DNA from: Prochloron sp.
GTDB taxonomy: Bacteria > Cyanobacteriota > Cyanobacteriia > Cyanobacteriales > Prochloraceae
Direction: 5' to 3'
NCBI GenBank assembly: GCA_965198675.1
Contig: OZ240666.1
Coordinates: 146,806-210,805, forward strand
DNA: 64,000 nt
Shown here: positions 10,901 to 62,506 of the stretch, piece after piece
How positions within the stretch are numbered: position 1 is the first letter of the stretch
Layout of the letters: the number at the start of each line of letters is the position of its first letter
Made by a program: the position numbers and the translations under genes
Notes under the pieces: generated by a model
Databases searched by the model: none
What the model saw: the letters and a program-made list of their open reading frames with translations, nothing else
Told to the model about the DNA's origin: nothing

Positions 10901-11612
10901 ATGAATACGGACTACCTAAATTTCTGCCCTCGACTAAAAAAGATGATAGATACGGGAACCTCAGTTAACTCAAAGGGAGAAAAAATACAAATTGCGGGAA
11001 CCTCGATTTTAAACAACATTAGGATTATCCGAGAAATATTAAGAGAGTTTAAGCCAATCAGAACCCTTGAGATTGGATTGGCTCATGGCGCTTCTGCTTT
11101 AACTATACTTTCCACTCTTAGAGAAATATCGCCAAATGGGTTTCTTCACACTACCATTGATCCATGTCAGACAACAGTATGGGGTGGCAGCTCAATTCGA
11201 GTTATTAATGATGAAGGATATGTCGAAAATTTCCGCTTTTACGAGGATTATTCGGCTATTGTCTTAGCAAACCTAGTAAAAGAAAAGGAGAAATTTGATT
11301 TGGCCTATGTAGACGGTTCCCATCTTTATTGAAGATGTTTTTCTAGATTTCTACTACACATCCATTCTTCTAAATAAGGATGGCATTGTTTTATTTGATG
11401 ATTGCACGGATAGACATGTGGCAAAGGTAATTAAATTCAGCAACAAAAATTATTCTGATATTTGGGAACCTTTAAATATAAAACCCTTTGAAGCTCCGCA
11501 AAAATATTTTAAGAAAAAACTAGGTAATTTGTTAGGAATAAGACAATTGATTGGCTTTAAAAAAATTAGCGAACCACCAAGAGTATGGAATGTAAAATTT
11601 AGCAATTTTTGA
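10901..11612 (+). pseudogene. Class I SAM-dependent methyltransferase, frameshifted
   Basis: ORF 10901..11332 ends at ...AYVDGSHLY*. The protein continues in another frame (IFIEDVFLDFYYTSILLNKDGIVLFDDC...) into ORF 11418..11612. The start frames differ (mod 3 = 2 versus 0). Confidence 0.6.
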
Positions 11613-11629
11613 CCAGAACAAAACAGTTC

Positions 11630-11829
11630 GTAGGGTGGGCAAGGTAGACGAAAACTTATAATTCATGGTTGGGGAATTAATTGAAGACCTTGCCCACCAG
11701 CAAAGTGTATGGGACATTTTAATTATATCTTCATAGTACAGTCCAGTCCACGACGGTGGACTTCCTATATTAGCACGCAATTTATTAGCGTGCGGGATAG
11801 ATAGCCAGGTGAACAATGCTAATATTATA
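11630..11829 (+). repeat. Structured dispersed repeat, copy A (GTAGGGTGGGCAAGG head; hairpins GTCCAC..GTGGAC and GCACGC..GCGTGC)
   Basis: About 90 percent identical by eye to 13331..13492 in the same orientation. Its head is related to 45328..45370 and its tail to 39390..39425. Confidence 0.7.
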
Positions 11830-12133
11830 CTATGGATAACTTGTGTTTCACGGAGATATCTCGATTATGAGCTTCTGATTGCTGAGCAGAGAATAAGTCC
11901 CAGCGACGCTGTAGGTTCATCCAGAAATCAGGAGAAGTGCCGAAAAACTTGGCTAATTTCAACGCGGTGCTTGGTGTGATTCCTCGTAAACCTATGATTA
12001 ACTCGTTGACCTGTTCATCGGGAAGGTGGATAGCATCAGCAAGTTCTTCTCGGGTCAAATTCATCGGGTTCAGAAATTCATCCAGAAGCATTTCTCCTGG
12101 ATGAGTTGGTGCTCGGTGGGTTGGTACTCTCAT
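11825..12133 (-). CDS. higA: HigA-family antitoxin (HTH)
   Basis: MRVPTHRAPTHPGEMLLDEFLNPMNLTREELADAIHLP...ITPSTALKLAKFFGTSPDFWMNLQ is the typical HigA/VapI HTH antidote sequence. It lies immediately downstream of a HigB-like ORF. Confidence 0.75.
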   Translation of the reverse strand: MRVPTHRAPTHPGEMLLDEFLNPMNLTREELADAIHLPDEQVNELIIGLRGITPSTALKLAKFFGTSPDFWMNLQRRWDLFSAQQSEAHNRDISVKHKLSIV

Positions 12134-12150
12134 TTGCTATTTCCTCAGAG

Positions 12151-12412
12151 TCAGTGGTAATTTAGAATTTCAACCTCATCTGTTCCTCCGTCATTCCAGG
12201 TAAAACAGATGCGGTACTGATCATTTATCCGGATGCTGAACTGCCCAGCGCGGCGGAATGCGAAGTTCATCCAAGGACATGACAGAATCCAGTTGATCTA
12301 GCTTTCGAGCCGCCCGCCCCCACAGATAGGTCGGACATATCCTCCGTGCTGCTTTGGAATCTCTGCCGTTGAAGATATCTTCAGTCCCGGAGTTTTTGAA
12401 TGCTCGAATCAT
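12151..12412 (-). pseudogene. higB: HigB-family toxin (plasmid maintenance system killer), frameshifted
   Basis: The N-terminal part MIRAFKNSGTEDIFNGRDSKAARR...LRIPP stops at 12221. The conserved C-terminus AGQFSIRINDQYRICFTWNDGGTDEVEILNYH* is readable in another frame down to 12151. The segment that normally joins them (GNRLE.LKGDR-like) is missing. Confidence 0.7.
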
Positions 12413-12991
12413 GTTTTCATGATATCATGGAAGTCTTAGTGACGCACCCACAGCCATCCTTCGGGTAGGCAGTGGGCAACGAGCGTCGCCCTTCGGGCGA
12501 GGAGAACTTCATTCGAGGTACTCGGAACTTTCCCCCGACTGCGTTTTATAGTGAGGTATGCGTCCCGCCCCACTTTCAATTCATTGTATCGTAGTTTTGA
12601 AAATCCGTCAATGAATTTTGATATCCGGCGCGGCATCTCCCCTTGGGGGGAGTAGAGGGGGGTTCCTCACACGCCAAAACTCGCGCCCACCGAGTAGGCG
12701 CAAAGGGACGCAATTACACCCCGACTGCGGTATAGCACCGTCTCCTTCCCATCATAAAGGCGTACTTTGCGTCTTTGCGTGACCAAATCAAAGATTATGG
12801 CGTGCGGCTCCTGCCGCCTTAGCTAAAAGGTCTTGTTTGAAGCAGCGCGCCGCCTTGCTGTTCCGTTCCGGATTAATTTTGAGTCTAGTCACCAAGTTGA
12901 GAAAGAAATTGGCAAAGTCGTGATATAGTTTCAATTTCATTCGAGGGTAATTTTTTCGTGAGAGAATAGACGAATAACTAGATAAACTCCA

Positions 12992-13105
12992 TGCTAAGAA
13001 AAATTCGAGCATTGAAAGCCCAAATTGCCCTTTTAGGGTTTGTTTATTTACCTAAGCGGGGAAAAGGTAGTCATGAACGTTGCAGGATTAATGAGTCTAT
13101 ATAGC
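12992..13105 (+). pseudogene. Possible truncated HicA-like toxin
   Basis: 37-codon ORF MLRKIRALKAQIALLGFVYLPKRGKGSHERCRINESI*. The LLGF....GKGSH core resembles HicA but the protein is about half normal length. It overlaps the start of a HicB-like gene. Confidence 0.3.
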
Positions 13106-13309
13106 ATGATAGTTGAATGGTCAGATGAAGACCAGCTTTTTTTAGTTACTATACCAGAATTCTGCGATCGCGTTATTATGCCTTGTACTCATGGCCAAAC
13201 TCGCTCAGAAGCTATTCGTCATGGTGAGGAAGTCATCGCAATGTATTTGGAAGCTTGGCAGACAGAAGGAGAATCTATCCCTAAACCTAGCACATTCCAA
13301 GCTGCTTGA
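13091..13309 (+). CDS. HicB-family antitoxin (UPF0150-like)
   Basis: MSLYSMIVEWSDEDQLFLVTIPEF...CTHGQTRSEAIRHGEEVIAMYLEAWQTEGESIPKP matches the HicB N-terminal fold pattern. The start is uncertain (13073 or 13091). Confidence 0.6.
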   Translation: MSLYSMIVEWSDEDQLFLVTIPEFCDRVIMPCTHGQTRSEAIRHGEEVIAMYLEAWQTEGESIPKPSTFQAA

Positions 13310-13330
13310 TTGTGTTGTTGACTCTCCCCG

Positions 13331-14408: not shown

Positions 14409-14673
14409 CTAGTATACTTCATCATGAGTACCAACCGTTTGCAGTAAAATAGCTTCAGTTCCCTTATGTTGTGCGAACTCAAAGATAATTCTTAAGTCGT
14501 ACCCTACGCTACAAGCCCAAGAACCTCCAAGCTCTCCTTTCAGCTAAAGCGGCAGGAGCCTCACAGAGTAATACCAAAGTTAGCTGCAAGTCTTGCGCTG
14601 CTCTAGGATTCTTCTTCACTAAACGCTTAGCTGCTCTGGCAAAAGCATTTGAGCGGATGAGGATACGTTTCAC
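14409..14673 (-). pseudogene. RelE/ParE (YafQ-like) toxin, frameshifted
   Basis: A GTG start overlaps the upstream stop (GTGA). The N-terminal part is VKRILIRSNAFARAAKRLVKKNPRAAQDLQLTLVLL. The C-terminal part LKGELGGSWACSVGYDLRIIFEFAQHKGTEAILLQTVGTHDEVY* is in another frame. Neither half is in the ORF track because both are shorter than 60 aa. Confidence 0.5.
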
Positions 14674-14915
14674 GACAGAATCTCTCCCATAAGTTCATCC
14701 ACTGATACTGGTGAGCATCGCCCCTCTGAAAAGTCTTGACGAGCTTCCCGAACCTCAGCAACTAATATTTGACGACTAAGTTGGGCTGTACGGCGATGCA
14801 AAATATTGAGCAAGGTTTCCTGCTCTTCTAAAGAGAGTTTATCAATCGCTTCTGTAGGATGCGTTACTCTTCTTAATTCTGTTTTGTTTCTACTACTAAC
14901 GATGGCTAACGCATC
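14670..14915 (-). pseudogene. Cognate antitoxin-like ORF with lost start
   Basis: The frame ...EAIDKLSLEEQETLLNILHRRTAQLSRQILVAEVREARQDFSEGRCSPVSVDELMGEILS* is open but has no ATG. Its 5' end is occupied by copies of the small GTAGGATGCGTTAGC repeat. Confidence 0.3.
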
Positions 14916-15004
14916 CTACGCTTCTCCAAAAAGCATTGTTGGCGTCATAAACTTAAATCCCTCCTATTACAATGTCTCTGGGGCATCCTGCTCATTGAGA
15001 GGTA

Positions 15005-16745: not shown

Positions 16746-18122
16746 ATGCTCCTAACTATAACCACTACTCACCAACCAGCCACAGACTTAGGCTATTTGC
16801 TCCACAAGCACCCAGAGAGGTTTCAGTCCTTTGACCTCTCTTTTGGCAGGGCATTTGTTTTCTATCCAGAAGCAAGTCCTGAACGGTGTACTGCTGCTCT
16901 GATGCTAGACATGGACCCCATAAAGTTGGTCCGGAAGGAAGGGGCTACTATAGCACAATACGTCAATGACCGTCCCTATGTAGCTTCCTCTTTTCTGAGT
17001 GTGGCCATAGCCCAAGTTTTCAGTACTGCTTTAGCCGGACACTGTCATCATAAACCGGAACTGCCATCAACACCACTAAATTTAATCGCTAAACTGGCAG
17101 TATTACCCTGTAAGCAGGGGTCCGGTTTCCTTCGTCGTCTCTTTGAGCCATTAGGATACCAAATAACTGCAACGGGTCATCAAGAAGATGAAGCATTTCT
17201 CCAGTGGGGGAACAGTCCTTATTTTACCGTCCAACTGGAAGGATTGGTCACGTTACAGCAGTTACTAGAGCATCTTTATGTTCTGATTCCCGTTTTAGAT
17301 GCTCAAAAGCACTATTGGATCGGGGATGAGGAAGTGGAGAAATTGCTGCGTCGCGGGGAAAGTTGGTTGGGAAGTCATCCAGAACGGGAAAGGATCGCCC
17401 GTCGTTACCTCAAACAGCAAGGATATTTGGTGCGGAATGCTCTCACTCAGTTAACTGAGGAGACGATGGAAGAGGAAAAATTGGAACCCCCTCTCAGTCT
17501 CAACCAACAAAGACTGGAAACAGTTGTCGCTACTCTGAAGGAAGCAGGGGTTAGGAAAGTGCTGGACTTAGGTTGTGGGGAAGGGAAGCTGTTGCAGAAA
17601 CTGCTCCAAGAGGACAGTTTTACTAAGATAGTTGGGGTAGACGTATCTTGTCGCTGTTTGGAAATAGCTAAGAAACGTCTGAAACTAGACCGTTTACCAC
17701 CGTTACAGCAGGAACGGATTCAGTTATTACAGGGTTCCCTTACCTATGGTGATAAACGGTTCAAGGGTTACGATGGAGCAACGGTAGTGGAGGTGATAGA
17801 ACATTTAGATCCCTCACGACTCAGTGCCTTTGAAAAGGTTGTGTTTGCCCTTGCTCGACCAAAAACTATTGTTATTACTACCCCTAATCGGGAGTATAAT
17901 GTAAAATTGGAAAACTTACCTCGTAATTGTAACGGCGAGTCACAATCAGGGAAATTGCGTCATCCAGATCATCGTTTCGAGTGGACTCCCTCGGAGTTTC
18001 AAAGTTGGGCCAAATCTGTAGCTGAAAGGTTTGGCTATGAGGTGCAGTTTCAACCTATTGGGGAGTCTGACTCAGTTGTGGGGGCACCCACACAGATGGG
18101 GTTTTTCCTTTGTCAGGATTGA
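16746..18122 (+). CDS. hen1: 3'-terminal RNA ribose 2'-O-methyltransferase Hen1
   Basis: 458 aa. The N-terminal MLLTITTTHQPATDLGYLLHKHPERF is typical of bacterial Hen1. The C-terminal SAM methyltransferase carries VLDLGCGEGKLL and ATVVEVIEHLD. A Pnkp gene lies on the same strand downstream. Confidence 0.85.
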   Translation: MLLTITTTHQPATDLGYLLHKHPERFQSFDLSFGRAFVFYPEASPERCTAALMLDMDPIKLVRKEGATIAQYVNDRPYVASSFLSVAIAQVFSTALAGHCHHKPELPSTPLNLIAKLAVLPCKQGSGFLRRLFEPLGYQITATGHQEDEAFLQWGNSPYFTVQLEGLVTLQQLLEHLYVLIPVLDAQKHYWIGDEEVEKLLRRGESWLGSHPERERIARRYLKQQGYLVRNALTQLTEETMEEEKLEPPLSLNQQRLETVVATLKEAGVRKVLDLGCGEGKLLQKLLQEDSFTKIVGVDVSCRCLEIAKKRLKLDRLPPLQQERIQLLQGSLTYGDKRFKGYDGATVVEVIEHLDPSRLSAFEKVVFALARPKTIVITTPNREYNVKLENLPRNCNGESQSGKLRHPDHRFEWTPSEFQSWAKSVAERFGYEVQFQPIGESDSVVGAPTQMGFFLCQD

Positions 18123-18180
18123 AACACAATTTTGATTAAACTATTGTACAATGTAATCAGAGTAAGATTGAGGAGAGACG

Positions 18181-20917: not shown

Positions 20918-21544
20918 ATGGGCAAGCGCAGAGGTAAGAAAAAATGAGAAAAGTGGTTCAAGCGTCATGGTTGGGAATTTCCCAGGAATTGGTTTTTTAA
21001 GGACAATTTTATTCCCCCGATACTTTCAGAAATGCTTCCTCTAATCCAAAAATGGCGCGAAGAGGTTAACCGAAGATATCTATGTGATTTAGGGGTTAAG
21101 TTTCGCTGTCTAGTGGAGGGAAAAAGACAGTTTTTGGATAACTCCTATGAAATGGCATTTTGGCTGGAGCTGAGGGACCCTCCACTTTCTGATTTAGTGG
21201 AATTAATGAATGACTACTGTGATATCTATGACGCAATTCCCTTTTTGACCTATCTTGACTTGTACAGATATGATGACGACGCCGATTATTTGCCTTGGGA
21301 GAATGTGAGATGTTATGGGAACTTCCCAGAGTATGAGAAGTTGATTGAGGAGGAGGAAGACTATGATTATGTGATTGATGAGGAGGAACCACGGAACAAC
21401 AAAAAACCATGGGAGGAATACTATAGTGAGGAAGATAATCCGATTCTAGTTTTGTTCGAGGAATGCCCCGAGTTTAATTGGGCAGGTGCTTTGGCAGAAT
21501 TTCGCAGTTCTATGGAAGAAGAATTAATTGAGGTTGATGATTAA
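20918..21544 (+). pseudogene. Third copy of the 205-aa module, with in-frame TGA at codon 10
   Basis: It reads ATGGGCAAGCGCAGAGGTAAGAAAAAATGA and then continues in the same frame (EKWFKRHGWEFPRNWFFKDNFIPPILSEMLP...) into ORF 21032..21544. Its stop codon (21542-21544) directly abuts the pnkp ATG at 21545. Confidence 0.5.
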
Positions 21545-22214
21545 ATGGATATCAAAATTCCCGAACTCTCCCTTATTGTCCTCATTGGTGTTTCCGGTTC
21601 CGGTAAATCTACTTTTGCTCGAAAACACTTCCAACCCACGGAGGTTATTTCCTCAGATACTTGTCGAGGGTTGGTATCGGACGATGAAACGGACCAGTCC
21701 GCTACTAAAGATGCTTTTGAGGTTCTCCATTTTATCGCCGCCAAACGTTTAGCTGGGCGTCGTTTGACCGTAATAGACGCTACTAATGTGAAAGCAGAAG
21801 ACAGGAAACCGCTGTTAAAGTTGGCTAAGCAATACCACTTTTTTAGTGTGGCGATCGCCTTTAACTTACCACCAAAACTCTGTCAGGAACGGAACAAAAA
21901 CCGCTCCAACCGCCAGTTTAGTTCTCAGGTAGTCCACCGTCAGAGTCAATATTTGCGTCGGGGGTTAAATAAGCTGAAACGGGAAGGGTTCCGCTACCAT
22001 TATATCCTCTCTTCTGTAGAAGGAATAGATAAAGTTTCCATTCATCGTCAGCCACTTGGTCATAATTTACGTCAGGAACATGGTCCTTTTGATATTATCG
22101 GGGACATTCACGGTTGCTATGATGAACTGGAAACTCTACTGCAAAACCTAGGATACCAAATAACTGCTCATCCCGACCCAAGTTCTGGTTGGTATGGCCC
22201 AATATATCATCACC

Positions 22215-22567
22215 TTTTAGTTACCAGTGACCAGTAATCACGTACCATGGTAGCAGCTCAACCTTGGGTTTGAGGCCCCCACCTTTCAGTTACCAGTGAC
22301 CTTGTACCATGATAGTGACCAGTAATCACGTACCATGGTAGCAGCTCAACCTTGGGTTTGAGGCCCCCACCACTTATTTGGTGGCAAGCCACTTATTGGT
22401 GGAAGGTAACTGGTAACTGCCTGACTGCCCCGGTTGGCATGAGCAGGACTGGTAACTGGTAACTGGTCACTGCCTGACTGCCCCGGTTGGCATGAGCAGG
22501 ACTGGTAACTGGTAACTGGTCACTGGTAACTGGTAACTGGTCACTGGTAACTGGTCACTGTTTTACC
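22215..22567. mobile_element. 353-bp non-autonomous repeat insertion (MITE-like, STRR-rich) inside pnkp
   Basis: Deleting exactly 22215-22567 joins ...YHH to PEGRKAVFLGDLVDRGP in frame. The termini are inverted (GTTACCAGTGACC / GGTCACTGGTAAC). The inside holds two copies of an approximately 86-bp left unit, two copies of an approximately 62-bp right unit and CTGGTAA/CTGGTCA heptamer runs. Confidence 0.65.
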
Positions 22568-23323
22568 CAGAGGGGCGTAAAGCAGTCTTCTTGGGGGATT
22601 TAGTGGACAGGGGACCAAAAATCTTGGCTACCCTTAAGTTAGTGCGGAATATGGTGGAATTGGGCACTGCTTTGTGCGTTCCCGGGAACCATGATATCAA
22701 GTTGGTGCGGAAGCTGGAAGGCAGAAATGTGCAAGTTAAGCACGGTTTAGCCCAGACTTTAGCAGAGTTGGAACCCCTTTCAGAAGAGTTTAAGCAGTCT
22801 ATTGCTGCTTTCCTTGACGGTCTCGTCAGTCACTACGTCCTAGACCAGGGTAAATTAGTAGTAGCCCATGCAGGAATGAAAGAGTCCATGCAGGGTAGGG
22901 GTTCGGGACAAGTGCGCAGCTTTGCCCTCTATGGGGAAACAACTGGGGAAATTGACCAGTTTGGTTTACCAGTGCGCTATGAGTGGGCCAAAGAATATCG
23001 GGGTCAAGCTCTGGTTGTGTACGGTCATACCCCTGTTCCCGAACCAGAATGGCTCAATAATACCATCGATATCGATACGGGTTGCGTTTTTGGGGGGAAG
23101 TTGACTGCACTGCGCTATCCGGAAAAGGAACTGGTTTCTGTTGCTGCTGGGAAAACCTATTGTGAACCAGTGAAGCCTTTTTTACCTAATGTCGGCAGAA
23201 GGCTCACACCATAATCTTCGACCTGCTAAGGTCTGGCTATACCTTAGCAGGGGTGTGAGATGAATGACGACGCCGGGATTTATATGCTAGAATAAATCAA
23301 ATGGGCAGGCAATGGATAAGACC

Positions 23324-24572
23324 ATGTTGATCTACGAGATGAAACTGGAAGGAACTAAAGAACAGTACCCACCCCCCTTGCCCCCCTCCCGGGAGGGGGG
23401 TTGGGGGGTGGGTAGCTATTCGTACTGGGCGTTTTATTCGTAACAGTATCATCAGAGCGTGGATTGACAGAGAAGTGAAGAGTCGCAACTCAGCCTACAA
23501 ATATTGCAAGATTTTGGCAGATAATCCAGAGTTCCCTTGGGCAAAGCAGTTAAACTCGCAAGCAAGACAAGCCCACGCCGAAAGAACATGGGCTGCAATC
23601 GAGCGCTTCTTTTTAAACTGCAAGGCAAAAATTCAAGGAAAAAAGGGGTATCCAAAGTTTAAAAAGTATCAGGTCAGGGCGTCGGTGGAGTACAAAACTT
23701 CCGGTTGGAAACTGTCCGAAGATCGTAAGTATTTGACTTTTTCTGACAAGTTCCAAGCAGGTAAATTTAGACTTTGGGGTAGCCGTGACCTTCACTATTA
23801 TCAACTCAACCAGATTAAACGAGTGCGAGTAGTGAGGAGGCATGATGGCTATTACGCGCAATTTGTAATTAACCACTCCAGGAGGGAAACTAAGGAACTA
23901 TCCAACAAACAATCAGGGCTAGATGTTGGTTTAAACCATTTCTACACAGACTCCCATGGCGATACAGTCGATAATCCAAGGTTTTTAAGAAAAGGTGAAC
24001 GGCGTATTAAAAAGCTACAAAGACGTTTATCTCGAACTAAAAAGGGCAGTAGTAACCGCTCTAAAGCTAGGAATCGCTTAGGTAGAGCGCATCGATCGGT
24101 TTCCCGCAAACGTAACGATTGGGTATGTAAGTTGGCCCAGCGCGTCATACGGTCTAACGACTTAGTAGCGATTGAAAACCTAACAGTGCGTAATATGGTG
24201 AGAAACCACTGTTTAGCTAAATCTATTAACGATGCAGCTTGGTATAAATTCCGAGAATGGCTAGAGTATTTTGGGACCATTTATGGGGTGAAAGTGATTG
24301 CCATTGACCCCAAATATACTTCTCAAAACTGTTCTAATTGTGGGAAAAAGGTGACCAAAACATTGAGCACCAGAACTCACAATTGTCTTCATTGCGGTTA
24401 TATAGCTGATCGGGATGAGAACGCTGCCATCAATATCCTGTCTGCTGCATTGGAACAATTAAAAACTACCCTGGGGCACAGGGAAAGTAACGCCTCTGGA
24501 GAGACTCCCCTCTGCCTAGTAGTGGAAACACCGCTGAGTAAGGGAACTCGCAGAAAGAGGAAATCCTCATAG
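23324..24572 (+). pseudogene. tnpB: TnpB (IS605 OrfB) RNA-guided nuclease, N-terminus frameshifted by a 46-nt palindromic mini-insertion
   Basis: MLIYEMKLEGTKEQY (frame 2) is followed by 46 nt of C/G-run palindrome (23369-23414). The protein resumes as AIRTGRFIRNSIIRAWID... (frame 0). The C-terminal zinc finger and RuvC are present (CSNCGKKV...HNCLHCGYIADRDENAAINIL). Confidence 0.75.
23369..23414. repeat. C/G-run palindromic mini-element (CCCACCCCCC..CCCTCCCGGGAGGGGGG..GGGGGGTGGG)
   Basis: It is a near-perfect palindrome. Related copies lie at 58602-58643, about 59196-59245, about 12636-12665, about 31262-31310 and about 39222-39275. Confidence 0.7.
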
Positions 24573-26065
24573 CAATATGGGAATCCCCCGCTATACTGCG
24601 TAGCAGTTAGCGGCGGGAGGATGTCAATTACCACCCAACAGCAGTTGGACGATGTGTTAGAGTTGGAAGACTTGTTAGTTAAAAAGACCATTGAGACCAG
24701 ACTGGGACCCAGGGTAACTATTGGGGAAGAAAATGCTAGGACTGCCTTGGAAGTCATGAGTCGATTTGCAGTTAATCCCAAGTGGCTGATATATTTACCC
24801 TCAACCATGTCTCCCTCGGAAACTTCCAGTAAACCGGGTTTATTGGAATATCCCACAGAAGCTTTTGCTTATTATAGTCGTCTGGGTGTCTCTCAAGTAA
24901 TTTGCGAAGAAAAGCATATGGGTTCCCGGGGGATAGTTATAGTGTGTCGGCATGAAGAGGCAGCACAACGGCGATTTGGGGTAGTTGACGAAGGGATTGG
25001 CATTTGCTATAGTCGTACAGGAAGGCGTTTCTTTAAGAATCCAAAGCTGGAATAGGAAGTACTAACTCAATTACAAAGAGCACTTACAAGAGGGGGATTT
25101 TGGCAAGAGTTTGAGACGGACTGGATTTGTTTGGACTGCGAAATAATGCCTTGGTCTGTGAAAGCTGAGGAACTGATTCGAGAACAATATGCAGCAGTGG
25201 GGGTAGCTGCACGGGTTGCTCTGTCTTCTGCTGTTTCTTTGCTCCAACAAGGTGCGGTGCGGGGTTTAAATGTGGGGGAAATTTTAACTCGCTATCAGGA
25301 GAAGGAGCAATTAGCCCAACGATACGTACAAGCATACCGTCCTTATTGTTGGGAAGTGAATGGTATTAGGGACTTAAAGTTAGCTCCGTTCCACCTGTTA
25401 GCCACAGAAGGGGCAGTTTACGGGGATAGGGACCATCTCTGGCATCTGAATATATTAGGGCAAATCTGTCGTACTGACCCCTTGTTAATGACACCAACTG
25501 AGTATAAAGTAGTGGATACCAAAAATCCAGATTCGGAAGCAGAAGCAATTAAGTGGTGGAAGGAACTTACTGCTGCGGGGGGAGAAGGAATGGTAGTTAA
25601 ACCTTTGTCTTTTATAGCTAAAAGCAAACGGGGGTTAATGCAACCAGCATTGAAATGTCGCGGTCAGGAATATTTGCGGATTATCTATGGTTTGGAATAT
25701 ACTTTGTCAGAGAATTTGGAGCGATTGCGTCAGAGAGGGTTATCTAGGAAGCGGAGTCTAGCATTGAAAGAGTTTTGTTTGGGTATGGAAGCTTTGGAGC
25801 GATTTGTGGAACGGGAACCTTTGCGTCGGGTTCATGAATGTGTCTTTGCTATTCTCGCATTGGAGAGTGAACCTGTGGATCCTCGTTTGTAGGGTGGGCA
25901 TTGCCCACCAATAACCACCCGTACCCTCGTCTCCCCGCCCGCGAATGAATTGCGGACTACCTTATAAAACACCGAGCGGGTTGAATATTGAGTTGCGTTC
26001 AAACAGATAATTCTGTAATGGCGCAAGGTTTGCGCCCTCTTTAAACTATCCCACTGTAGCGACAA

Positions 26066-26914
26066 ATGACAAAAAAGAAAGCCGATATCAGCACGAAAAG
26101 ATTAATTAGTTTATCTCCAAATGAGTGGATACAATGGGTCATGCAAAGAACCGAATTTGAAGCGAAAGAGATTATTTCCTCTGAGTTTCAGTGGGTGAGT
26201 CGAGAAGGAGACGTTTTAGTTAAAGCATATAGTGACGATTTGGGGGAGTTTTTAATTCTCAATGAGTTACAATTGAGGTATACTAAAAAAGTACCTCGAC
26301 GCATGAGAGCGTATGCAGCTTTGGCGGAGGAAAAATATGAACTTCCCGTTTATCCAGTTTTGATTAATATACTGGAAGCGTCTTCAGAAACCATTACTAG
26401 TTCCTTCCAGAGTAATTTTGCTGGTTTGAGGGCGATCCAAGAGTATCGAGTAATAAACTTGTGGGAAGTAGACGTAGATATAGTCTTCCAGCGCAATTTA
26501 TCTACATTGCTGCCATTAGTGCCGATCCTGAAAGGAGGAGGGAAAGAAAAAGTCATCAAACGTGCTTTAAGAGAGTTACGAGTCCAAAAACAACCAGGTG
26601 AGCTAGAATCAATATTAGGGTTCTTTGCTACCTACGTTTTAGACACTAGTTTAGTTCGAGAAATTCTGAGGTTCGATATGGCAATTTTAGAACAATCCCC
26701 TTTGTATCGAGAGATAGTCTCCAAGAGCAAACAAGAAGGCATAGCGATCGGCGAACAGCGTGGTATTCAGCAAGTCGCTACTAATATGCTCCGCATGGGT
26801 ATATCAAGGGAGCAAGTCTCTGAGGCGACAGGAATCTCTGTTGAGCAAGTGGCTCGATTACTTGAGAAATCCTCAGTATCTGAGGGGCGCGCACCGCGTA
26901 GCGGATCTCTTTGA
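26066..26914 (+). CDS. Rpn-family recombination-promoting nuclease / putative transposase (PD-(D/E)XK with DUF4351-like tail), intact copy
   Basis: 282 aa. The MTKKKADISTKRLISLSP... head and the ...LEQSPLYREIV...GIQQVATNMLRMGISREQVSEATGISVEQVARLL tail are typical of the cyanobacterial Rpn/transposase_31-like family. Confidence 0.65.
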   Translation: MTKKKADISTKRLISLSPNEWIQWVMQRTEFEAKEIISSEFQWVSREGDVLVKAYSDDLGEFLILNELQLRYTKKVPRRMRAYAALAEEKYELPVYPVLINILEASSETITSSFQSNFAGLRAIQEYRVINLWEVDVDIVFQRNLSTLLPLVPILKGGGKEKVIKRALRELRVQKQPGELESILGFFATYVLDTSLVREILRFDMAILEQSPLYREIVSKSKQEGIAIGEQRGIQQVATNMLRMGISREQVSEATGISVEQVARLLEKSSVSEGRAPRSGSL

Positions 26915-26961
26915 GATCGCTCTGGTTAGAAACGGAGCGGTTAATCTCTATATCAAGGTTT

Positions 26962-27020
26962 GGACGGTGCGTTGCCATTGCGAAGCAAAGCGTAAGCAAC
27001 CGCCTTTGGCGTCCGCACCC
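26962..27020. repeat. Short copy of the composite GACGGTGCGTTGCCATTGCGAAGC...GGCGTCCGCACC mini-element
   Basis: It shares its ends and core with 57666-57771 and 59966-60091 but has single sub-repeats. It is duplicated at 27926-27984. Confidence 0.6.
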
Positions 27021-27265
27021 TACGCAGGAGGTCAACTTGCGTCGGGTTCATGAATGTGTGTTTGCTATTCTTGCATTGAAAAGCGAACCTGTGGATCCTC
27101 GTTTGTAGGGTGGGCATTGCCCACCAATAACCGCTCGCCCGCGAATGAATTGATTGCTCTCCTTATTAAACCCCTTCAGGATTTCATATTTAGTTGCGTT
27201 CAAACATAGAAGTAGGAGCGCCACCATCTTTGCGCCCTCTTTAAATTATCCCACTATACCGACAA

Positions 27266-27878
27266 ATGACCAAAAAGAAAGCCGATATCAGCACGAAACG
27301 ATTAATTAGTTTTGATTAATATACTGGAAGCGTCTTCAGAAACGATTGCTAGTTCCTTCCAGAGTAATTTTGCTGGTTTGAGGGTGATCCAAGAGTATCG
27401 AGTAATAAACTTGTGGGAAGTAGACGTAGATATAGTCTTCCAGCGCAATTTATCTACATTGCTACCATTAGTGCCGATCCTCAAAGGAGGAGGAGAAGAA
27501 CAAGTCATCAGACGTGCTTTAGGAGAGTTACGAGTTCAAAAACAACCAAGGGAGTTAGAATCAATATTAGGGTTCTTTGCTACCTACGTTTTAGACACTA
27601 GTTTAGTTCGAGAAATTCTGAGGTTCGATATGGCAATTTTAGAACAATCCCCTTTGTATCGAGAGATAGTCTCCAAGAGCGAAAAGCGAGGTATCGCGAT
27701 CGGCGAACAGCGAGGAGAAAAGCGAGGCATTCAACGAGTCGCTACTAATATGCTCCGCATGGGTATGACAAGGGAGCAAGTCTCTGAGGCGACAGGAATC
27801 TCTGTTGAGCAAGTTGCTCGATTACTTGAGAAATCCTCAGTATCTGAGGGGCGCGCACCGCGTAGCGGATCTCTTTGA
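27266..27878 (+). pseudogene. Rpn-family gene, copy 2, with internal out-of-frame deletion of about 250 bp
   Basis: It has the same first 16 codons as copy 1, then jumps from ...LIS to VLINILEAS at an AGTTT microhomology. The frame is lost (MTKKKADISTKRLISFD*). Confidence 0.65.
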
Positions 27879-28248
27879 GATCGCTCTGGTTAGAAACGGA
27901 GCCGTTAATCTCTATATCAAGGTTTGGACGGTGCGTTGCCATTGCGAAGCAAAGCGTAAGCAACCGCCTTTGGCGTCCGCACCCTACGCAGGAGGTCAAC
28001 TTGCGTCGGGTTCATGAATGTGTGTTTGCTATTCTTGCATTGGAGAGTGAACCTGTGGATCCTCGTTTGTAGGGTGGGCATTGCCCACCAAGCAACGCGC
28101 CCTTTATAAAACCCCGACCGGGTTTCAATTACTCCCCTCCTGGGGTTGAAACCCCAGGCTATTCCCTACTCTTCTCATGATTTTTTACCCCAACAGTGCC
28201 CCTACATTTTGCCGATCGTATCAATTCTCTTGTAGGCATCGCCCACCA

Positions 28249-28455
28249 ATGCTACTATCACCAGTACTCACCAACCAGCCACAGACTTAAGCTATTTGCT
28301 CCACAAGCACCCAGAGAGGTTTCAGTTCTTGCGAAGAAGAGAATAGGGATCCGGATACGGTGGAAGAGAAAAATTAGAACACCCTCTCAGTCTCAACGAA
28401 CAGCCGACGGTCAACAGTTGTCGCTACCCTCAAGGAAGCAGGGGTTAAGGAAGTG
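28249..28455 (+). pseudogene. hen1 relic (two fragments of a second hen1 copy)
   Basis: 28249-28330 aligns to hen1 16746-16830, including the ATG, with a 1-nt deletion. 28355-28455 aligns to hen1 about 17463-17570. The approximately 630 bp in between and the whole methyltransferase domain are missing. Confidence 0.7.
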
Positions 28456-35511: not shown

Positions 35512-35651
35512 GGTGGGCATTGCCCACCGCACCGCCCGAACCGCTAGTAGGGGCTGGGTTTTCCCGCCCGCATCGCCCACCAAATCCTTACGTAGCATCG
35601 CCCACCAAATCCGTCACCCGTCACCCCGAACCCAATCAAAGCCTAAAGAAC

Positions 35652-42529: not shown

Positions 42530-43005
42530 AACCGATAATTGCGCTCCCCTACCCAAAGACTAACGGGGACTGCATTTCCTTTACTATCCACCTTCACTTC
42601 TACCACAAATTGCCGTTCTTCCTTTTGTATCTCCCTGATCTGGGCATTAATCTCCTTACGCTTATTTTCTGGCATATAATAGGTTTCCAGCCCATAGTCA
42701 ATCCAGTCAGCACCCCCGGCTGAAGCACGGTTGCTCTCATGCCTCCAGCTTCAGGTAGCTGACCAGCCGTAGGATGCGTTACGCCATAGCTGTCAGCTTT
42801 AAACACTTCTCCAGACGTGTGCTAACGCATCCTACTTAACTGACTACGTTTTCCTTCGTCACGACACCTTCAGGTGCTTTCCAGCCTGTCGCTCTGTCGC
42901 TAATCATTAAACAGCCTTAGTAGGGGTAAAGCAGTGTGGTTGGCCCAACAAGCTTAGAAAACATTGGCAAGGAACACATTACACATCTGTAGACGAGACG
43001 CAACC

Positions 43006-48247: not shown

Positions 48248-48940
48248 ATGAACAAAAAAGCGATATTAGGTTCAATATTTTTAATCGCTGGTTTGACTCA
48301 GCCAGTGCTAGCACAAGAAATCAACAGCGAAGAAGACTTTTGGACATGGTGCGGCCCCCAAGCTTACTACTACAATGCTCAACACCCTGATTGCGATGAA
48401 CTGCGACAAATTTGGGCACCGGAAACAAGAGAAAACCCAGTAGTGCGTCCAAGAGAAGAACATCGCTTTGTAGAAGAAACTCCAACACGAAGAAATTATG
48501 GAACCGTCATTTACCCCGCTCGCTTTGTGGCGGGGCTTGGAAGAATCAGCTTCTAACTAAGAGTTGAAGCTGAATTTGTGCCCATCACTGGAATTGGAGA
48601 GGTTCCATCATCGGATTTGCAAGGAACCTACACCTTTTTTGGCCTTATTGTCGCTCCTGTATTGAGATTTCCTCTTTCACAGTCATTGAGAACTGCATTG
48701 TTCATCTCACCGGGAGTGGGTTTTGGATCGGTGAAAGTAGATTTGGACAACAGTGATTTATTCGCTGAGGATACCAGCTTTGTTTTTCAAGTCAAAGCTG
48801 GATTTGAGGTAGAAATGTTAAAGAATTGGTTCATACTCTTACAAGGTCGATACCTGAATACTTCGGCTGGGGATACATTTATAGGTAACGAAAATATTGA
48901 GGTTTGGTCTCCAGAGCTGGGAATAAGATTTTGGTTTTAG
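48248..48940 (+). pseudogene. Outer-membrane beta-barrel protein with in-frame TAA
   Basis: Signal peptide MNKKAILGSIFLIAGLTQPVLAQE. ORFs 48248..48556 and 48578..48940 share a frame and are separated by a TAA at 48554-48556. The C-terminus ...PELGIRFWF is a beta-barrel signature. Confidence 0.6.
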
Positions 48941-50938: not shown

Positions 50939-51430
50939 CTAAAGTTTCTGGATGACATTTTCGTAGCGCTGACCAATCTTTTCCCAAGTATATTCTGTCT
51001 CCACCAGAGTGCGACCATTGGTGGAAAGTTTTTCCCGCAGTTTTGGTTCGGCAAACAATCTACCAATAGCATAGACATATTCGGACAGTGTATTCGCTCT
51101 CATGGCTCGCAAAGGCACATTTGCTCTATCTACCTTCAATCCTAGCAAAGCGCGCTCGCGTAGCGGAGCCTTGCTCTCGCTTCCTACCACCGGAACTCCC
51201 GCAGCCATTGCTTCCAAGGTCTTATTTTGCAAGCCAAATCCCCGCCTAGTGGGTACAACACACACCGTTGCCCAGTGTAGGTATTCTGTCATAGATTTTA
51301 CCTCCCCTGTGACCTTAATGTTGGGGAATTCTACCAACTCTAACACTTCCGGAACTGGACAAGCACCCACTATTTCTAACCTTGCTTCCGGATAGCGATG
51401 GAGAATTTCCGGAAATATCTCCAGACTCAA
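50939..51430 (-). pseudogene. Family-1 glycosyltransferase, C-terminal fragment only
   Basis: It has the GT1 C-terminal domain pattern (VPTRRGFGLQNKTLEAMAAGVPVVGS). The N-terminal half is absent, and a dispersed repeat (51429-51478) sits at the truncation point. Confidence 0.6.
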
Positions 51431-54429: not shown

Positions 54430-54732
54430 GATATTACGGGTTCAAGAACAACCAGGAGAGCTAGAATCAATGTTAGGGTTCTTTGCTACCTACGTCTTAG
54501 ACACTAAGTAGGTAAGCAAATTCTGAGGTTAGATATGGCAATCCTAGAACAATCCCCTTTGTATCGAGAGATAGTCGAGAATAGCGAAAAGCGAGGCATC
54601 GCGCTCGGCATTCAGCGAGTTGCATTAAATATGCTCCGTATGGGCATGGCAAGGTCGCAAGTCTCTGAGGCGACAGGACTCTCTGTTGAGCAAGTGGCTC
54701 GATTACTTGAGAAATCTTCGGTATCTGAGTAA
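54430..54732 (+). pseudogene. Rpn-family gene, copy 4 (3' fragment)
   Basis: QPGELESMLGFFATYVLDTK-stop, then MAILEQSPLYREIVENSEKRGIALGIQRVALNMLRMGMARSQVSEATGLSVEQVARLLEKSSVSE. It is homologous to the last third of 26066..26914. Confidence 0.6.
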
Positions 54733-54875: not shown

Positions 54876-55265
54876 TTGTTTTTTGAACCTTTATAAATAT
54901 AACTAATATTTTTTCCAGTGTCAACCCCTTTTTGGAAAAATATTCAAAAAAATTTTTTTTCCCTACCCTGACCCACTCACCGAGTCTCAGGAACCACCGT
55001 GTCGCAACTGTTGTAAACGCTCCTTGGCTTCTGGAGTAAGGGAATTAAAAAGAAAACGACCCGGAGATTTTTTGTTGGGTCGTTTTTTGCGCTTCAGTCG
55101 AGTAGTTGCCATGTCCACCTCTCTTGCCAGTCTTTGAGCAGACATGGATTCCGCTCCATATCCCAAGACAGTTAGCTGCTGGGCCCGATCTGAAGTTGCC
55201 ACAATCAGTCGAGAATACTGGGGATACCCCTGGTGCTGACGTCGAGCGCAAACTTTTTCGGTATA

Positions 55266-56167
55266 GAACCCATTTGAGATCTCTGTTGTGGAGTAAAATA
55301 GGGAAAAAATGCCGTACTCAAGTAGTTTGACAGACGGGGAGTGGAAAATAATAGAACCTCTGTTGCCCAAAAAGAAACAGACAAGACCACCAAAATGGAG
55401 TAAAAGGCAGATTTTAGATGGTATCTTGTACCAATTAAAGAATGGTTGTAATTGGTGTGACTTACCCAAAGACTTGCCCCCCTATTCCACAGTATTTTGG
55501 TACTACAAACAGTGGCGATCGCTTGGGGTAATCGAAGCAATCAGAGATATCTTGCATAGTAGAGTCCGTCAGCAAGTTAAAAAAAAAGGGCAATGGACAA
55601 CCCTAATCATCATTGACTCCCAAGCGGTAAAAAATACCTGTAACGCCAGTGTAAAGTCGAAAGGGTTTTGTTTTTACAAGTCTACCAATGGTCTTAAAAG
55701 ACATCTAGCAGTAGATACTTTGGGCTTTCCTTTTTTTAGTCATTGCACCAAAGCATCGGTATCTGACGATGTGGGTTTGATTGAAATGTTATCGAAAAAC
55801 ATAGATTATTTCAAGTCTAAACCAGTCAACATCCCCAAGATTACCATTTTGCTTGACCATGGATATCACCCAGAAAAACTGACCCAGGAATTACATAAAA
55901 TTTATCCGGCGATTATGACTAAGATTAGATTTAAGGTCTCCCGTAAACCATCAAAAGCTCAAAAGAAAAAGAAAGGAAAAACCGGTTTTGTGCCAGTAAA
56001 AGCGCGGTGGGTGATTGAAAGAACTAATTCGTGGATGGAAAGATGCAAGAGTTTGGTCAAAAACTTTGAAAGGACTCTTGAGCAGGCTAATACCAAGATT
56101 AGTCTATGTTTTGTCCGACTGATGCTTAAAAGGCTAGCCACTACTTAAAAAGATCTCAAATGGGTTC
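55266..56167 (+). mobile_element. IS5-family insertion sequence (902 bp) with 17-bp perfect terminal inverted repeats and 4-bp TATA target duplication
   Basis: Left IR GAACCCATTTGAGATCT (55266-55282), right IR AGATCTCAAATGGGTTC (56151-56167). The element is flanked by TATA at 55262-55265 and 56168-56171. Confidence 0.85.
55309..56148 (+). CDS. IS5-family DDE transposase
   Basis: MPYSSSLTDGEWKIIEPLLPKKK...RQILDGILYQLKNGCNWCDLPKDLPPYSTVFWYYKQW is the DUF4096-type N-terminus. It is followed by the DDE domain (IIIDSQAVKN..., LDHGY..., RWVIERTNSW). Confidence 0.85.
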   Translation: MPYSSSLTDGEWKIIEPLLPKKKQTRPPKWSKRQILDGILYQLKNGCNWCDLPKDLPPYSTVFWYYKQWRSLGVIEAIRDILHSRVRQQVKKKGQWTTLIIIDSQAVKNTCNASVKSKGFCFYKSTNGLKRHLAVDTLGFPFFSHCTKASVSDDVGLIEMLSKNIDYFKSKPVNIPKITILLDHGYHPEKLTQELHKIYPAIMTKIRFKVSRKPSKAQKKKKGKTGFVPVKARWVIERTNSWMERCKSLVKNFERTLEQANTKISLCFVRLMLKRLATT

Positions 56168-56480
56168 TATAGGTATCTGCTGTCTGGGCAAAAGCCGTAT
56201 AATACACAGACAAATCCCGGGTATGACTTTCGCTATGGGCCGGAGTATTCTGATAATGGGCGTCAAAAACGATTTCCGTCTTATAGCCCACAATAGCAGT
56301 GTAATTAATTAAAACTTCTACCAACTCTCCTCTAGCTGAGGAAAGCCCATCATTATCCCTGGTCTTTTTCAGAGACGACCAAGTACCGATGACGTTATAA
56401 CCGTCAACGAGTAGGAGTACTGGGTCTGATTTGGAGGACATTTTTGCTGGTGGGAGGTTGGTTGGATAGTTCTTAAGAAT

Positions 56481-60519: not shown

Positions 60520-60549
60520 TTGCCAAAGTCTAAAGGTTTCCTTTAATAT
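60520..60549 (+). promoter_or_regulatory. Candidate sigma-70-type promoter upstream of psbD (TTGCCA-N18-TAATAT)
   Basis: The -35-like TTGCCA is at 60520-60525 and the -10-like TAATAT at 60544-60549, about 125 nt upstream of the ATG. This is a sequence resemblance only. Confidence 0.25.
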
Positions 60550-60675
60550 AAAATAAGTTAAGAAACGTAACGATTTTTCACATTTCCTCTACTCTTCTGC
60601 TTAATCCCAGGAGATCCGCGATGAGCGAGAGAAATTTCAATCCTTGTCCTCATATCATATTCAGAGATTTGCGTC

Positions 60676-61734
60676 ATGACAGCTGTAATATCTCGCGCCC
60701 CAGCTCAGAGAGGATGGTTTGACGTCCTCGACGACTGGCTCAAGCGCGATCGCTTTGTATTTGTTGGTTGGTCCGGTATTCTGCTCTTCCCCTGCGCTTA
60801 TTTAGCGCTCGGGGGTTGGCTCACGGGCACAACTTTCGTCACTTCTTGGTACACCCACGGTCTCGCCTCCTCCTACCTAGAAGGGGCGAACTTCTTAACC
60901 GTAGCGGTTTCCAGCCCTGCGGACGTCATGGGACATTCCCTTCTCTTCCTCTGGGGACCAGAAGCCCAGTGGGACTTCACCCGCTGGTGCCAAATTGGCG
61001 GTCTCTGGAGCTTCGTTGCTCTCCACGGTGCCTTCGGTTTAATCGGTTTCATGCTGCGACAGTTTGAAATCGCCCGTCTGGTAGGAATTCGCCCCTATAA
61101 CGCCATCGCCTTCAGCGGTCCTATTGCGGTATTTGTGAGCGTTTTCCTCATGTATCCTTTGGGACAGTCCAGCTGGTTTTTTGCTCCCAGTTTCGGTGTA
61201 GCAGGGATTTTCCGCTTTATCCTCTTCTTACAAGGATTCCACAACTGGACCCTGAACCCCTTCCACATGATGGGAGTAGCAGGTATTCTGGGAGGTGCCC
61301 TGTTGTGCGCAATCCACGGAGCGACGGTAGAAAATACCTTGTTCCAAGACGGAGAAGACGCTAATACCTTCCGCGCTTTCACCCCCACCCAAGCTGAAGA
61401 AACCTATTCCATGGTGACAGCGAACCGTTTTTGGTCCCAAATCTTCGGCATTGCCTTCTCCAACAAGCGTTGGCTCCACTTCTTCATGCTGTTCGTCCCT
61501 GTGACTGGCTTATGGATGAGTTCTGTAGGTATTGTGGGTTTAGCTTTGAACCTGCGGGCTTACGACTTTGTCTCCCAAGAACTGCGGGCTGCTGAAGACC
61601 CCGAGTTTGAGACCTTCTACACTAAAAACATTCTGTTGAACGAAGGTTTGCGGGCTTGGATGTCTAGCCAAGATCAGCCTCACGAGAACTTTGTCTTCCC
61701 TGAAGAAGTTCTACCTCGTGGTAATGCTCTCTAA
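60676..61734 (+). CDS. psbD: Photosystem II D2 protein
   Basis: 352 aa, near-identical to canonical D2 ([30 protein letters not shown]...[12 protein letters not shown]). No overlapping psbC follows, so this is a monocistronic psbD copy. Confidence 0.97.
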
Positions 61735-61798
61735 AAGTTTGCGGGTGTTGGATGAGTAATAATCATCCTCCCTATTACAGTTTTTTATACTCTGCTTT

Positions 61799-61826
61799 AG
61801 CCCCTACTTCAGGGGCTTATTTTTGC
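61799..61826 (+). terminator. Rho-independent terminator after psbD
   Basis: Stem AGCCCCT / AGGGGCT with loop ACTTC, followed by TATTTTTGC. Confidence 0.6.
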
Positions 61827-61972
61827 TTGATTATGTATTAATCTAGTTGAATAACAAGGTAAATGCGCTATATCATTTTATATCAATCAACATGTCTCCA
61901 CTGATCTACGAAATATTGGGACTTGATAATTTTACTGAAGCTGGGGCAAAACAAACACCGTAGGATCTCCAG

Positions 61973-62332
61973 ATGATTGAACTGATTCGTCAGGGACTTT
62001 CCCCATCTACTGCTTCCAGAGTAGCAGAGTATTCTGGACTATCCAAGGAGCAACTTTTGGGGTTGCTGGGAAGTCAAGAGAATACTCTATCTAAGGGTTC
62101 CGAAGAAAACAAACTGCTTGATTCCATCTCCTCAGATCGACTTTACCGCGTTGCTCGAACTGTTGCTCTTGCTATGGAAGCATTCGAGGATGGGAATAAA
62201 GCAAGACGGTGGCTTCATAAACCTAATCGCGCTTTAGGAGGAGGAGCACCCTTAGAACAGTTGGACACTGATGCGGGGATAGAACAAGTCCTGACATTAT
62301 TTAATCGCATCGAGTACGGAGTTTACAGTTGA
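61973..62332 (+). CDS. DUF2384 (Xre/MbcA/ParS-type) antitoxin
   Basis: SDRLYRVARTVALAMEAFEDGNKARRWLHKPNRALGGGAPLEQLDTDAGIEQVLTLFNRIEYGVYS is the characteristic DUF2384 C-terminal toxin-binding domain. Confidence 0.7.
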   Translation: MIELIRQGLSPSTASRVAEYSGLSKEQLLGLLGSQENTLSKGSEENKLLDSISSDRLYRVARTVALAMEAFEDGNKARRWLHKPNRALGGGAPLEQLDTDAGIEQVLTLFNRIEYGVYS

Positions 62333-62506
62333 TCATCTCCCTATGGCGAATATCCAAACTCCGAAATTATACATCAGAAAAGCAACTATTTGTTAAATTC
62401 ATTGCATCCTGACTTTTCTAAGATAATCATCCATCCTCCAGAACCTTTCACCCTGGAGCCTCGAATGTGGATAATAATATCACATCCGGTAACTAGACTA
62501 AAATAT

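Follow-up and report, generated by a model that had tools for sequence, protein, structure and literature searches.

The 64-kb window analysed in this work (W) was found to carry a large number of inactivated genes beside intact housekeeping genes. Twenty of about 64 loci were eroded, comprising 15 non-mobile genes and five mobile-element pseudogenes, and the remnants accounted for 22% of the bases. The intact loci were 41 protein genes, 3 tRNA genes, 3 mobile-element genes and a full-length HEARO RNA. Intact coding sequence represented 57% of the window, with a further 6% in the intact mobile-element genes and the HEARO RNA. Matches to Rfam in the window corresponded to this RNA, to the 3' end of a group II intron and to the tRNAs. 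In an initial annotation, made from the sequence alone, 15 lesions had been listed and a window-wide erosion of genes had been proposed. The lesions were re-read by three-frame and stop-to-stop translation, and then by means of profile libraries and alignment of orthologous DNA. All 15 were present at or beside the positions where they had been placed, and the neighbouring housekeeping genes were indeed intact. Four more were detected, namely in a hicA toxin gene, in the antitoxin gene that partners a RelE-like toxin, in a relic of a GDYXXLXY gene and, possibly, in a GrpE-like gene that shows a stop-loss.

The eroded genes are largely accessory and include toxins of toxin-antitoxin (TA) modules, mobile elements, RNA repair genes and methyltransferases. 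The lesions were nonsense codons (all three stops), 1-bp indels, deletions, insertions of insertion sequences (IS) and insertions of small repeats, and direct reading confirmed the mixture of three stop codons, frameshifts and structural changes that had been described. Stop-codon recoding was rejected as an explanation, as TGA, TAG and TAA all serve both as lesions and as the normal ends of genes; the initial annotation had been right to dismiss it.

Two sister lineages were available for comparison. The first is ENA contig ERZ22157276 ctg13830c (G2; 4,718,108 bp), which was sampled three times (L086-L088) and aligns with W over almost its full length (80-99.7% identity). The second is a set of five SP5CPC1-type sponge-metagenome contigs (SP5; L081-L085), which covers the window from 15.5 to 50.1 kb at 85-99% identity. 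These sequences were reached through homolog searches and through ThiS, and exact-protein look-ups of CarB, PsbD, RpmB (from two start sites), an ABC ATPase and the protein P0121 were unmatched. The comparison comprises one region, with about 64 kb of W and about 60 kb per relative in three lineages. It showed that the lesions are derived, as the relatives hold intact orthologs and the sister lineages bear different lesions. Specific to W, with intact orthologs in the relatives, are an extra A in a methyltransferase gene, three lesions in pnkp, a TGG to TGA change in a CMAS-family gene, a TGG to TAG change in a WD40 gene, an IS5 insertion in a NYN gene and a deletion in hicA. Older and shared with relatives are the lesions in higB and relE, the stubs of a glycosyltransferase and a RES toxin, a hen1 relic and the block of Rpn-like genes that follows pnkp. 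In an independent assembly, each of the shared lesions recurred in identical form and free of indels. Orthologs with the same split structure had been named in the initial annotation as an observation that would speak against erosion. Such orthologs do exist for the toxin genes higB and relE, for the stubs of the glycosyltransferase and RES, and for the hen1 relic. The shared split structure therefore marks older, inherited pseudogenes and not functional split genes.

Four of the genes with lesions specific to W lie outside pnkp and the TA modules. The gene of an S-adenosylmethionine (SAM) methyltransferase (10901..11609, plus strand) was reported to carry a frameshift at about 11330, and this was traced to an additional A at 11328, which falls within a TTTTT run (TTT-A-TT). 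G2 has an intact ortholog of 236 aa. The match to the Pfam model Methyltransf_24 (positions 1-80 of 105) stops at the break, and the second fragment alone gave no Pfam or NCBIfam match. In the CMAS-family methyltransferase gene (29594..30721, minus strand), TGG has become TGA at 30221-30223. Here W differs by a single G to A change at 30221 from L081-L083, three SP5-type contigs of different samples or assemblies, which upholds the reported lesion; the two fragments match positions 9-72 and 85-263 of the 273 of the model. In the first of two WD40 genes (35631..37037, plus strand), the TGG to TAG change at 36804-36806 was also found, at a position where G2 keeps TGG, and the 3' end of the gene is replaced by an Rpn-like copy. 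The WD dipeptide to which the change had been ascribed was not recovered, the motif being RLW|TSE. The NYN/YacP gene (54990..56441, minus strand) is split, as proposed, by an IS5-family element (55267-56167) of 901 bp, which has perfect inverted repeats of 17 bp and is flanked by a duplicated TATA target. Its transposase (55309-56148, plus strand) is intact. The two NYN halves match positions 1-82 and 71-165 of the 166 of NYN_YacP, and the G2 gene is intact with 182 aa. Together with a tnpB element in pnkp, this insertion represents recent disruption by mobile elements, both being absent from the relatives.

A further group of lesions lies in an RNA repair island (16746-25892), where an intact hen1 is followed by four tandem open reading frames (ORFs), three modules of about 205 aa, pnkp and, directly after pnkp, the hen1 relic. 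The island was also seen in L086, L087 and L081. The pnkp pseudogene (21545..25892, plus strand) has intact orthologs of 858 aa in both relatives, and the claim that it contains three separate lesions was verified. The first is a 353-bp insertion of heptamer repeats, resembling a miniature inverted-repeat transposable element (MITE), at 22212-22564, for which no second copy was found in the window or in the compared loci of the relatives. The second is a 1.44-kb tnpB element (23187-24623), and the third is a CAG to TAG change at 25053-25055. The kinase, phosphatase and ligase domains are all recognisable, although not in one open reading frame, and positions 1-100 and 105-377 of the 377 of PNKP_ligase are matched by separate fragments. 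The tnpB gene (23324..24572, plus strand) is itself disrupted, as had been noted. Its lesion is a 45-nt GC-rich inverted repeat (23368-23412) inserted after codon 15, and the NCBIfam guided_TnpB match is limited to positions 52-388 of 389.

The intact hen1 (16746..18122, plus strand, 458 aa) matches positions 1-241 of the 242 of Hen1_L as well as a methyltransferase domain; in G2 its N-terminal 995 bp are gone. The two lineages are thus complementary, with pnkp dead and hen1 intact in W, and hen1 dead and pnkp intact in G2. Typically, hen1 comes after pnkp. At the corresponding site in W lies the relic (28236..28494, plus strand; shared with SP5), in which Hen1_L positions 4-29 of 242 are joined to hen1 codons ~238-275; this match bears out its earlier identification. 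Of the genes between the intact hen1 and pnkp, the four tandem ORFs encode coiled-coil proteins of about 75-105 aa, with a period of 325-346 bp and internal 21-bp TEMRESI repeats. Modules 1 and 2 are fused in one ORF of 410 aa. The third module (20918..21544, plus strand) carries the reported in-frame TGA at 20945-20947, at a codon that specifies Arg in P0363, an intact homolog of 209 aa with 82% identity. Modules of this family are nearly confined to the clade, a search of 1.84 billion representatives having yielded only 3 clusters. Neither Pfam nor NCBIfam matched the family, and an AlphaFold2 model computed from a 3-sequence alignment was uninformative (mean pLDDT 42.6).

Downstream of pnkp, a block of two Rpn-like units (25912..28000, plus strand) is present in G2 and absent from SP5. 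The unit at 26066-26914 is full length and the unit at 27154-27878 is internally deleted. A third copy (36934..37620, minus strand) has an N-terminal deletion and a heptamer array, and a fourth (54434..54732, plus strand) is a C-terminal stub, so that three of the four copies are deleted or truncated, in agreement with the initial annotation. The full-length copy matched NCBIfam TIGR01784 with an E value of 1e-10, under the curated cut-off, and none of these proteins matched Pfam. The units after pnkp are flanked by a direct repeat of ~95 nt in three copies (25821-28101), which consists of the pnkp 3' end and the hairpin GGGTGGGCATTGCCCACC. In SP5, without an Rpn gene at this place, there is one copy of the repeat. 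The arrangement looks like a long target duplication or a recombination-type integration at the GGGTGGGCATTGCCCACC hairpin. The third copy lies between two paralogous WD40 genes, the 3' ends of which form 188-nt repeats.

In all four type II TA modules the toxin is broken (HigB, HicA, the RelE-like toxin and RES), and the antitoxin is preserved in three of them (HigA, HicB and Xre), so in none of the four does an intact toxin stand beside an intact antitoxin. The higB pseudogene (12154..12424, minus strand) lacks about 10 codons and is frameshifted, with an identical structure in G2. Its two frames map to adjacent parts of the HigB-like model (positions 3-50 and 61-85 of 91), in support of the frameshift described before, and the antitoxin gene higA (11825-12133) is intact. 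The hicA remnant (12991..13104, plus strand) is cut at residue 31 by a 121-bp deletion at 13081 that is specific to W, beside an intact hicB antitoxin gene. The RelE/YafQ-like pseudogene (14412..14694, minus strand), common to G2, contains a frameshift and a stop. The frameshift had been predicted and was seen again: the gene lies in two frames, the C-terminal half matching positions 48-86 of the 88 of YafQ_toxin weakly, and the other fragment (A) alone giving no Pfam or NCBIfam match. In the gene of its partner antitoxin (14670..14948, minus strand), codon 10 is followed by an interrupting insertion of 63 bp specific to W, which starts at 14854, carries a stop and has inverted-repeat ends. 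Finally, remnants of a putative RES toxin (62305..62476, plus strand; common to G2) are located 3' of the intact Xre/MbcA/ParS antitoxin gene (61973-62332). That a remnant is present was confirmed, and its identity as RES remains weakly supported: the best match in the Protein Data Bank (PDB) was the C-terminus of a RES protein, with an E value of 0.43, and the stub alone had no Pfam or NCBIfam match.

The remaining lesions affect unrelated genes. An IscB element (42706..43918, plus strand) consists of a HEARO/omega RNA (42706-42982) and an IscB ORF (43006-43918) without its middle. Since the N- and C-terminal parts of the models are matched (RRXRR 1-92 of 174 and guided_IscB 245-314 of 314), the internal deletion noted earlier was corroborated. 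The HEARO (IscB omega) RNA is full length (108 bits in Rfam) and begins exactly at the point where the GDYXXLXY gene is truncated; this relic (42526..42705, minus strand) retains the C-terminal 59 aa and abuts the IscB element. The GT4 glycosyltransferase stub (50942..51430, minus strand), common to G2, had been called truncated, and only its C-terminal domain was found. In the outer-membrane beta-barrel pseudogene (48248..48937, plus strand), the TAA at 48554-48556 is real, but it is not a clean point mutation, as it lies in a scrambled or deleted segment of ~60 nt. The GrpE-like gene (39510-40220) encodes 236 aa in W and 169 aa in G2, and the stop of G2 corresponds to Lys in W. Its ORF is extended by 67 codons into repeat sequence, which may represent a stop-loss.

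Decay was also evident in the sister genomes, by different lesions. Besides the loss of the hen1 5' end, G2 has frameshifts in an AAA ATPase gene and in a WD40 gene, a third module truncated by the loss of 155 bp and an IscB gene split into ORFs of 55 and 353 aa. In SP5, a 6.9-kb deletion has fused a truncated AAA ATPase gene to the tail of an Hsp70-like gene, the modules carry in-frame stops, and one assembly shows a 164-bp deletion in the CMAS gene. None of the genomes compared has a working outer-membrane gene, and at least three different lesions are responsible: two independent SP5 assemblies have an additional T, L082 and G2 have lost sequence at the 5' end, and W has the deletion with TAA. 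A further candidate, a split of hen1 in SP5 (L081), was rejected as a lesion because it coincides with a 10-N scaffold gap. HpsA, a protein of hormogonium polysaccharide biosynthesis (1878-6467, 1529 aa; NCBIfam E value 9e-165), is intact in W; in G2 its gene is split into parts of 995 and 450 aa (L086 5222-9515). The pilin-like genes adjoining hpsA gave pN/pS values of 0.7-0.9.

The small repeats had been proposed to be active, and the comparison with the sister genome demonstrated this, as 45-, 63-, 175- and 353-bp insertions specific to W and copy-number changes in 14-nt arrays were found. Insertions with inverted-repeat ends that are specific to W were located at 12544-12718 (175 bp), 14854-14916 (63 bp), 23368-23412 (45 bp) and ~48090-48125 (~34 bp). 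These four differ in sequence and two of them interrupt ORFs; the relatives have other insertions of the inverted-repeat type, at other sites. Heptamer arrays similar to short tandemly repeated repetitive (STRR) sequences (ACTGGTA/ACTGGTC) occur at 10171-10203, 22501-22560, 37549-37586, 40207-40254 and 63143-63291, the second being part of the 353-bp insertion in pnkp. Most descriptions of such heptamers concern heterocystous cyanobacteria, yet W is from a Prochloron relative. In and around the group II intron, and also within its reverse transcriptase (RT) ORF, there are tandem repeats with units of 14 nt (GGGACGCCAAGGGC) or of 10-11 nt (GCTTCGCAAA-type), at 57705-57758, 58946-59023, 59984-60081 and 63855-63912. 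Differences in their copy number between W and G2 amount to indels of 28, 48 and 39 bp, and the RT ORF has 649 aa in W and 579 aa in G2.

Selection on the window was evaluated from pN/pS values against the relatives. The values were 0.01 for psbD, 0.05-0.08 for thrC, 0-0.07 for thiS, 0.17 for rpmB and 0.17 for carB. Ten pairs of free-living cyanobacteria gave 0.07-0.11 for carB at similar pS, so the value in this clade is about twofold higher. For this one gene, the excess hints at a mildly reduced efficacy of selection. The pieces of pnkp and CMAS, which are pseudogenes only in W, still showed pN/pS of 0.1-0.5, and their inactivation is therefore recent relative to the measured divergence. 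As most of the divergence predates inactivation, pN/pS fails as a pseudogene detector for recent lesions and was discarded for this use. Old stubs look neutral; that of the glycosyltransferase has 0 synonymous and 6 nonsynonymous differences. Substitutions derived in W displayed an ordinary spectrum (50 GC to AT and 44 AT to GC; 71 transitions and 41 transversions). The test for a transition bias recommended in the initial annotation turned out to be uninformative, because TGG to TGA, TGG to TAG and CAG to TAG changes can arise by GC to AT transitions only. The divergence between W and G2 was strongly mosaic, with pS of 0.004-0.04 over 10.8-35 and 51-54 kb, and of 0.15-0.18 in carB, rpmB, hpsA and psbD, a pattern that points to either recombination among lineages or a consensus of mixed origin.

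The source of the DNA was assessed from its proteins and composition. ThrC of W is 98% identical to that of 'Prochloron sp. SP5CPC1'/Ca. Paraprochloron, the ThrCs forming one 90%-identity cluster, and the next matches (88-90%, none above 90%) belong to Chroococcales/Pleurocapsales-type taxa (Gomphosphaeria, Microcystis, Chroococcus and Pleurocapsa). The closest CarB was at 79% among the GTDB matches listed, and Nostocales (Komarekiella, Calothrix) reached 74-75% only. The GC content of the window, 44-45%, agrees with the 44.5% of the clade (PMC9298193). Ca. Paraprochloron terpiosi LD05, with 3.84 Mb and a GC content of 44.5%, was obtained from the sponge Terpios hoshinota (PMC9298193), and the host of SP5CPC1 is the sponge Lamellodysidea herbacea (PMC7313196). 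All syntenic relatives of known origin, among which G2 is not included, come from sponge metagenomes (PMC7313196). ThrC, CarB, the GC content and the origin of the relatives therefore place the organism as Paraprochloron-like and outside the Nostocales, and the comparison with symbiotic Nostocales made at first was wrong as a placement. Judged by these sequence matches, W is chromosomal DNA of a Paraprochloron-like cyanobacterium, a relative of Prochloron in the sponge-associated clade. Its genome appears to be a single metagenome-derived contig of ~4.74 Mb, which would make it a third and larger genome of the clade.

Taken together, the results very probably reflect a real and ongoing, lineage-specific loss in situ of accessory genes in a cyanobacterium of this sponge-associated clade. 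Direct observation covers the lesions themselves, their polarity with respect to the relatives, the fact that they differ in origin from one lineage to another, and how accurate the assemblies are. As to the cause, the hosts of the clade are known only as sponges, and relaxed selection under host association is therefore the natural reading: selection would have become less effective, or would have been relaxed, in connection with a host-restricted lifestyle. It would have lapsed on the TA toxins, the Pnkp/Hen1 RNA repair island, several methyltransferases, the outer-membrane protein, the WD40 protein, the glycosyltransferase, the NYN nuclease and old mobile elements. Ordinary mutations would then build up unpurged: nonsense changes from GC to AT, indels of 1 bp, deletions mediated by repeats, and the insertion of IS5, of TnpB and of small palindromic or heptamer repeats. 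The small repeats are unusually active. The pattern may well reach beyond this region. Several points weigh against this view. The data come from one 64-kb region in three lineages, which was flagged for its very lesions, and the sponge link comes from the relatives of W. The eroded genes are mostly of kinds that decay in free-living bacteria too, and psbD, thrC, thiS and rpmB are under normal purifying selection. Neither the GC content nor the mutation spectrum indicates a strong AT drift. In addition, the coding density of LD05, 82.4%, has been described as similar to that of free-living relatives (PMC9298193).

Some of these points serve equally the main surviving rival, an unlikely one, namely that an accessory or 'junkyard' region is undergoing ordinary turnover with no relaxation linked to symbiosis or extending over the genome. 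The eroded loci are mostly TA toxins, mobile elements, RNA repair genes and lineage-restricted orphans, the core genes are strongly constrained, and the coding density of LD05 (PMC9298193) and the mutation spectrum of W are unremarkable. Against simple turnover stand the extent of the erosion (20 of ~64 loci and 22% of the bases) and the loss of non-mobile genes as well, such as NYN/YacP and the outer-membrane gene in W and hpsA and the AAA ATPase in the relatives. Moreover, the same genes have been struck independently in three lineages over a pS of ~0.02-0.15, carB shows about twice the pN/pS of free-living pairs, and the relatives of known origin are all from sponges.

Two further explanations concern the reliability of the sequence. 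The initial annotation had kept open that the assembly might be error-prone; frameshifts and stops would then be mistakes in the consensus of long-read or metagenome data. W does derive from a metagenome, as a single contig, and the hen1 split in the comparator L081 proved to be an artefact of a gap. Nevertheless, over 26.7 kb compared with independent assemblies, ~420 substitutions were counted, but no more than four indels of up to 3 bp. Only one of the latter lies in coding sequence, and it is an A within a T-run that leaves homopolymer length unchanged. Most lesions are structural (IS5 with its target duplication, 1.4-kb and 353-bp insertions, and deletions of 121 bp to ~1 kb), five are common, base for base, to an independent assembly, and nonsense substitutions are atypical of assembly error, which leaves this explanation hardly credible. 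Somewhat less remote, yet quite improbable, is an unfixed polymorphism or a chimeric metagenome consensus, such that no single cell bears all the lesions. It could account for the mosaic divergence (pS of 0.004-0.02 in some genes, and 0.15-0.18 in carB and hpsA), and the outer-membrane gene and the 3' end of CMAS vary among SP5-type contigs of different sponge individuals. However, recombination explains the mosaicism equally well, several lesions are common to separately assembled genomes and are thus fixed at least at the level of the lineage, and the three lesions in one pnkp suggest a single, long-dead allele and not a mixture.

If in-situ loss of accessory genes is accepted, a more specific and rather doubtful proposal can be made, in which the ~4.7-Mb genomes of W and G2 would represent a less-reduced, still-eroding Paraprochloron stage in comparison with the 3.84-Mb LD05, with partly convergent gene loss. 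The outer-membrane protein, Pnkp/Hen1 and the WD40 protein would have been lost independently, sometimes as complementary losses (pnkp in W, hen1 in G2), with all four TA toxins broken; this too is offered only tentatively. If true, the clade would be a natural replicated experiment on the order of gene loss as a cyanobacterium turns host-restricted. 

One paper on the clade argued, from coding density, that these cyanobacteria became host-restricted long ago and have mostly finished the change. Dated lesions that differ among the three sister genomes suggest that erosion continues. They also point out functions that can be dispensed with inside the sponge, namely RNA repair, TA toxins, the outer-membrane protein and surface polysaccharide genes of the hpsA type. 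For annotation, ORF-based coding density overstates the functional gene content of these genomes.

Comparison with known systems clarifies what is particular to this case. The kinase-phosphatase-ligase architecture of Pnkp and the Hen1_L and methyltransferase domains of Hen1 are shared with the known Pnkp/Hen1 RNA repair system. In W, however, pnkp is dead by three lesions and the hen1 next to it is a relic, and a second, intact hen1 is situated 3.4 kb upstream, with clade-restricted orphans in between. LD05 and SP5CPC1 belong to the same clade as W (ThrC 98%, syntenic DNA 85-99%, GC ~44.5%), and group II intron reverse transcriptases occur in W and in the clade, LD05 being reported with 50 RT genes (PMC9298193). 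The genome of W appears larger, with ~4.74 Mb versus 3.84 Mb (PMC9298193). A pseudogene analysis of the clade is absent from the accounts of LD05 and SP5CPC1 (PMC9298193, PMC7313196). The phenomenon is well known, and the case is new for the Paraprochloron clade in the literature found.

Among cyanobacteria, 'Nostoc azollae' 0708 and other obligate cyanobionts offer a close parallel, with many pseudogenes, diverse lesions, intact housekeeping genes and active insertion elements. W belongs to a different order, and no sign of vertical transmission, nitrogen fixation or AT drift was seen in the window. More generally, the build-up of pseudogenes in host-associated bacteria is textbook knowledge. 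A model of recently host-restricted bacteria, in which IS expand and pseudogenes accumulate, is that of Lo et al. 2016, here taken as cited in PMC9298193. In bacteria of this type (Sodalis, Shigella, Mycobacterium leprae), the IS load differs from the modest one of W, which amounts to one intact IS5, a dead TnpB, a dead IscB and one group II intron, and in W the contribution of small repeats, palindromic and heptamer, equals that of IS. As in those bacteria, accessory genes in W are lost by lineage-specific IS insertions, nonsense changes and frameshifts while the core is kept, and the same genes are struck independently in sister lineages.

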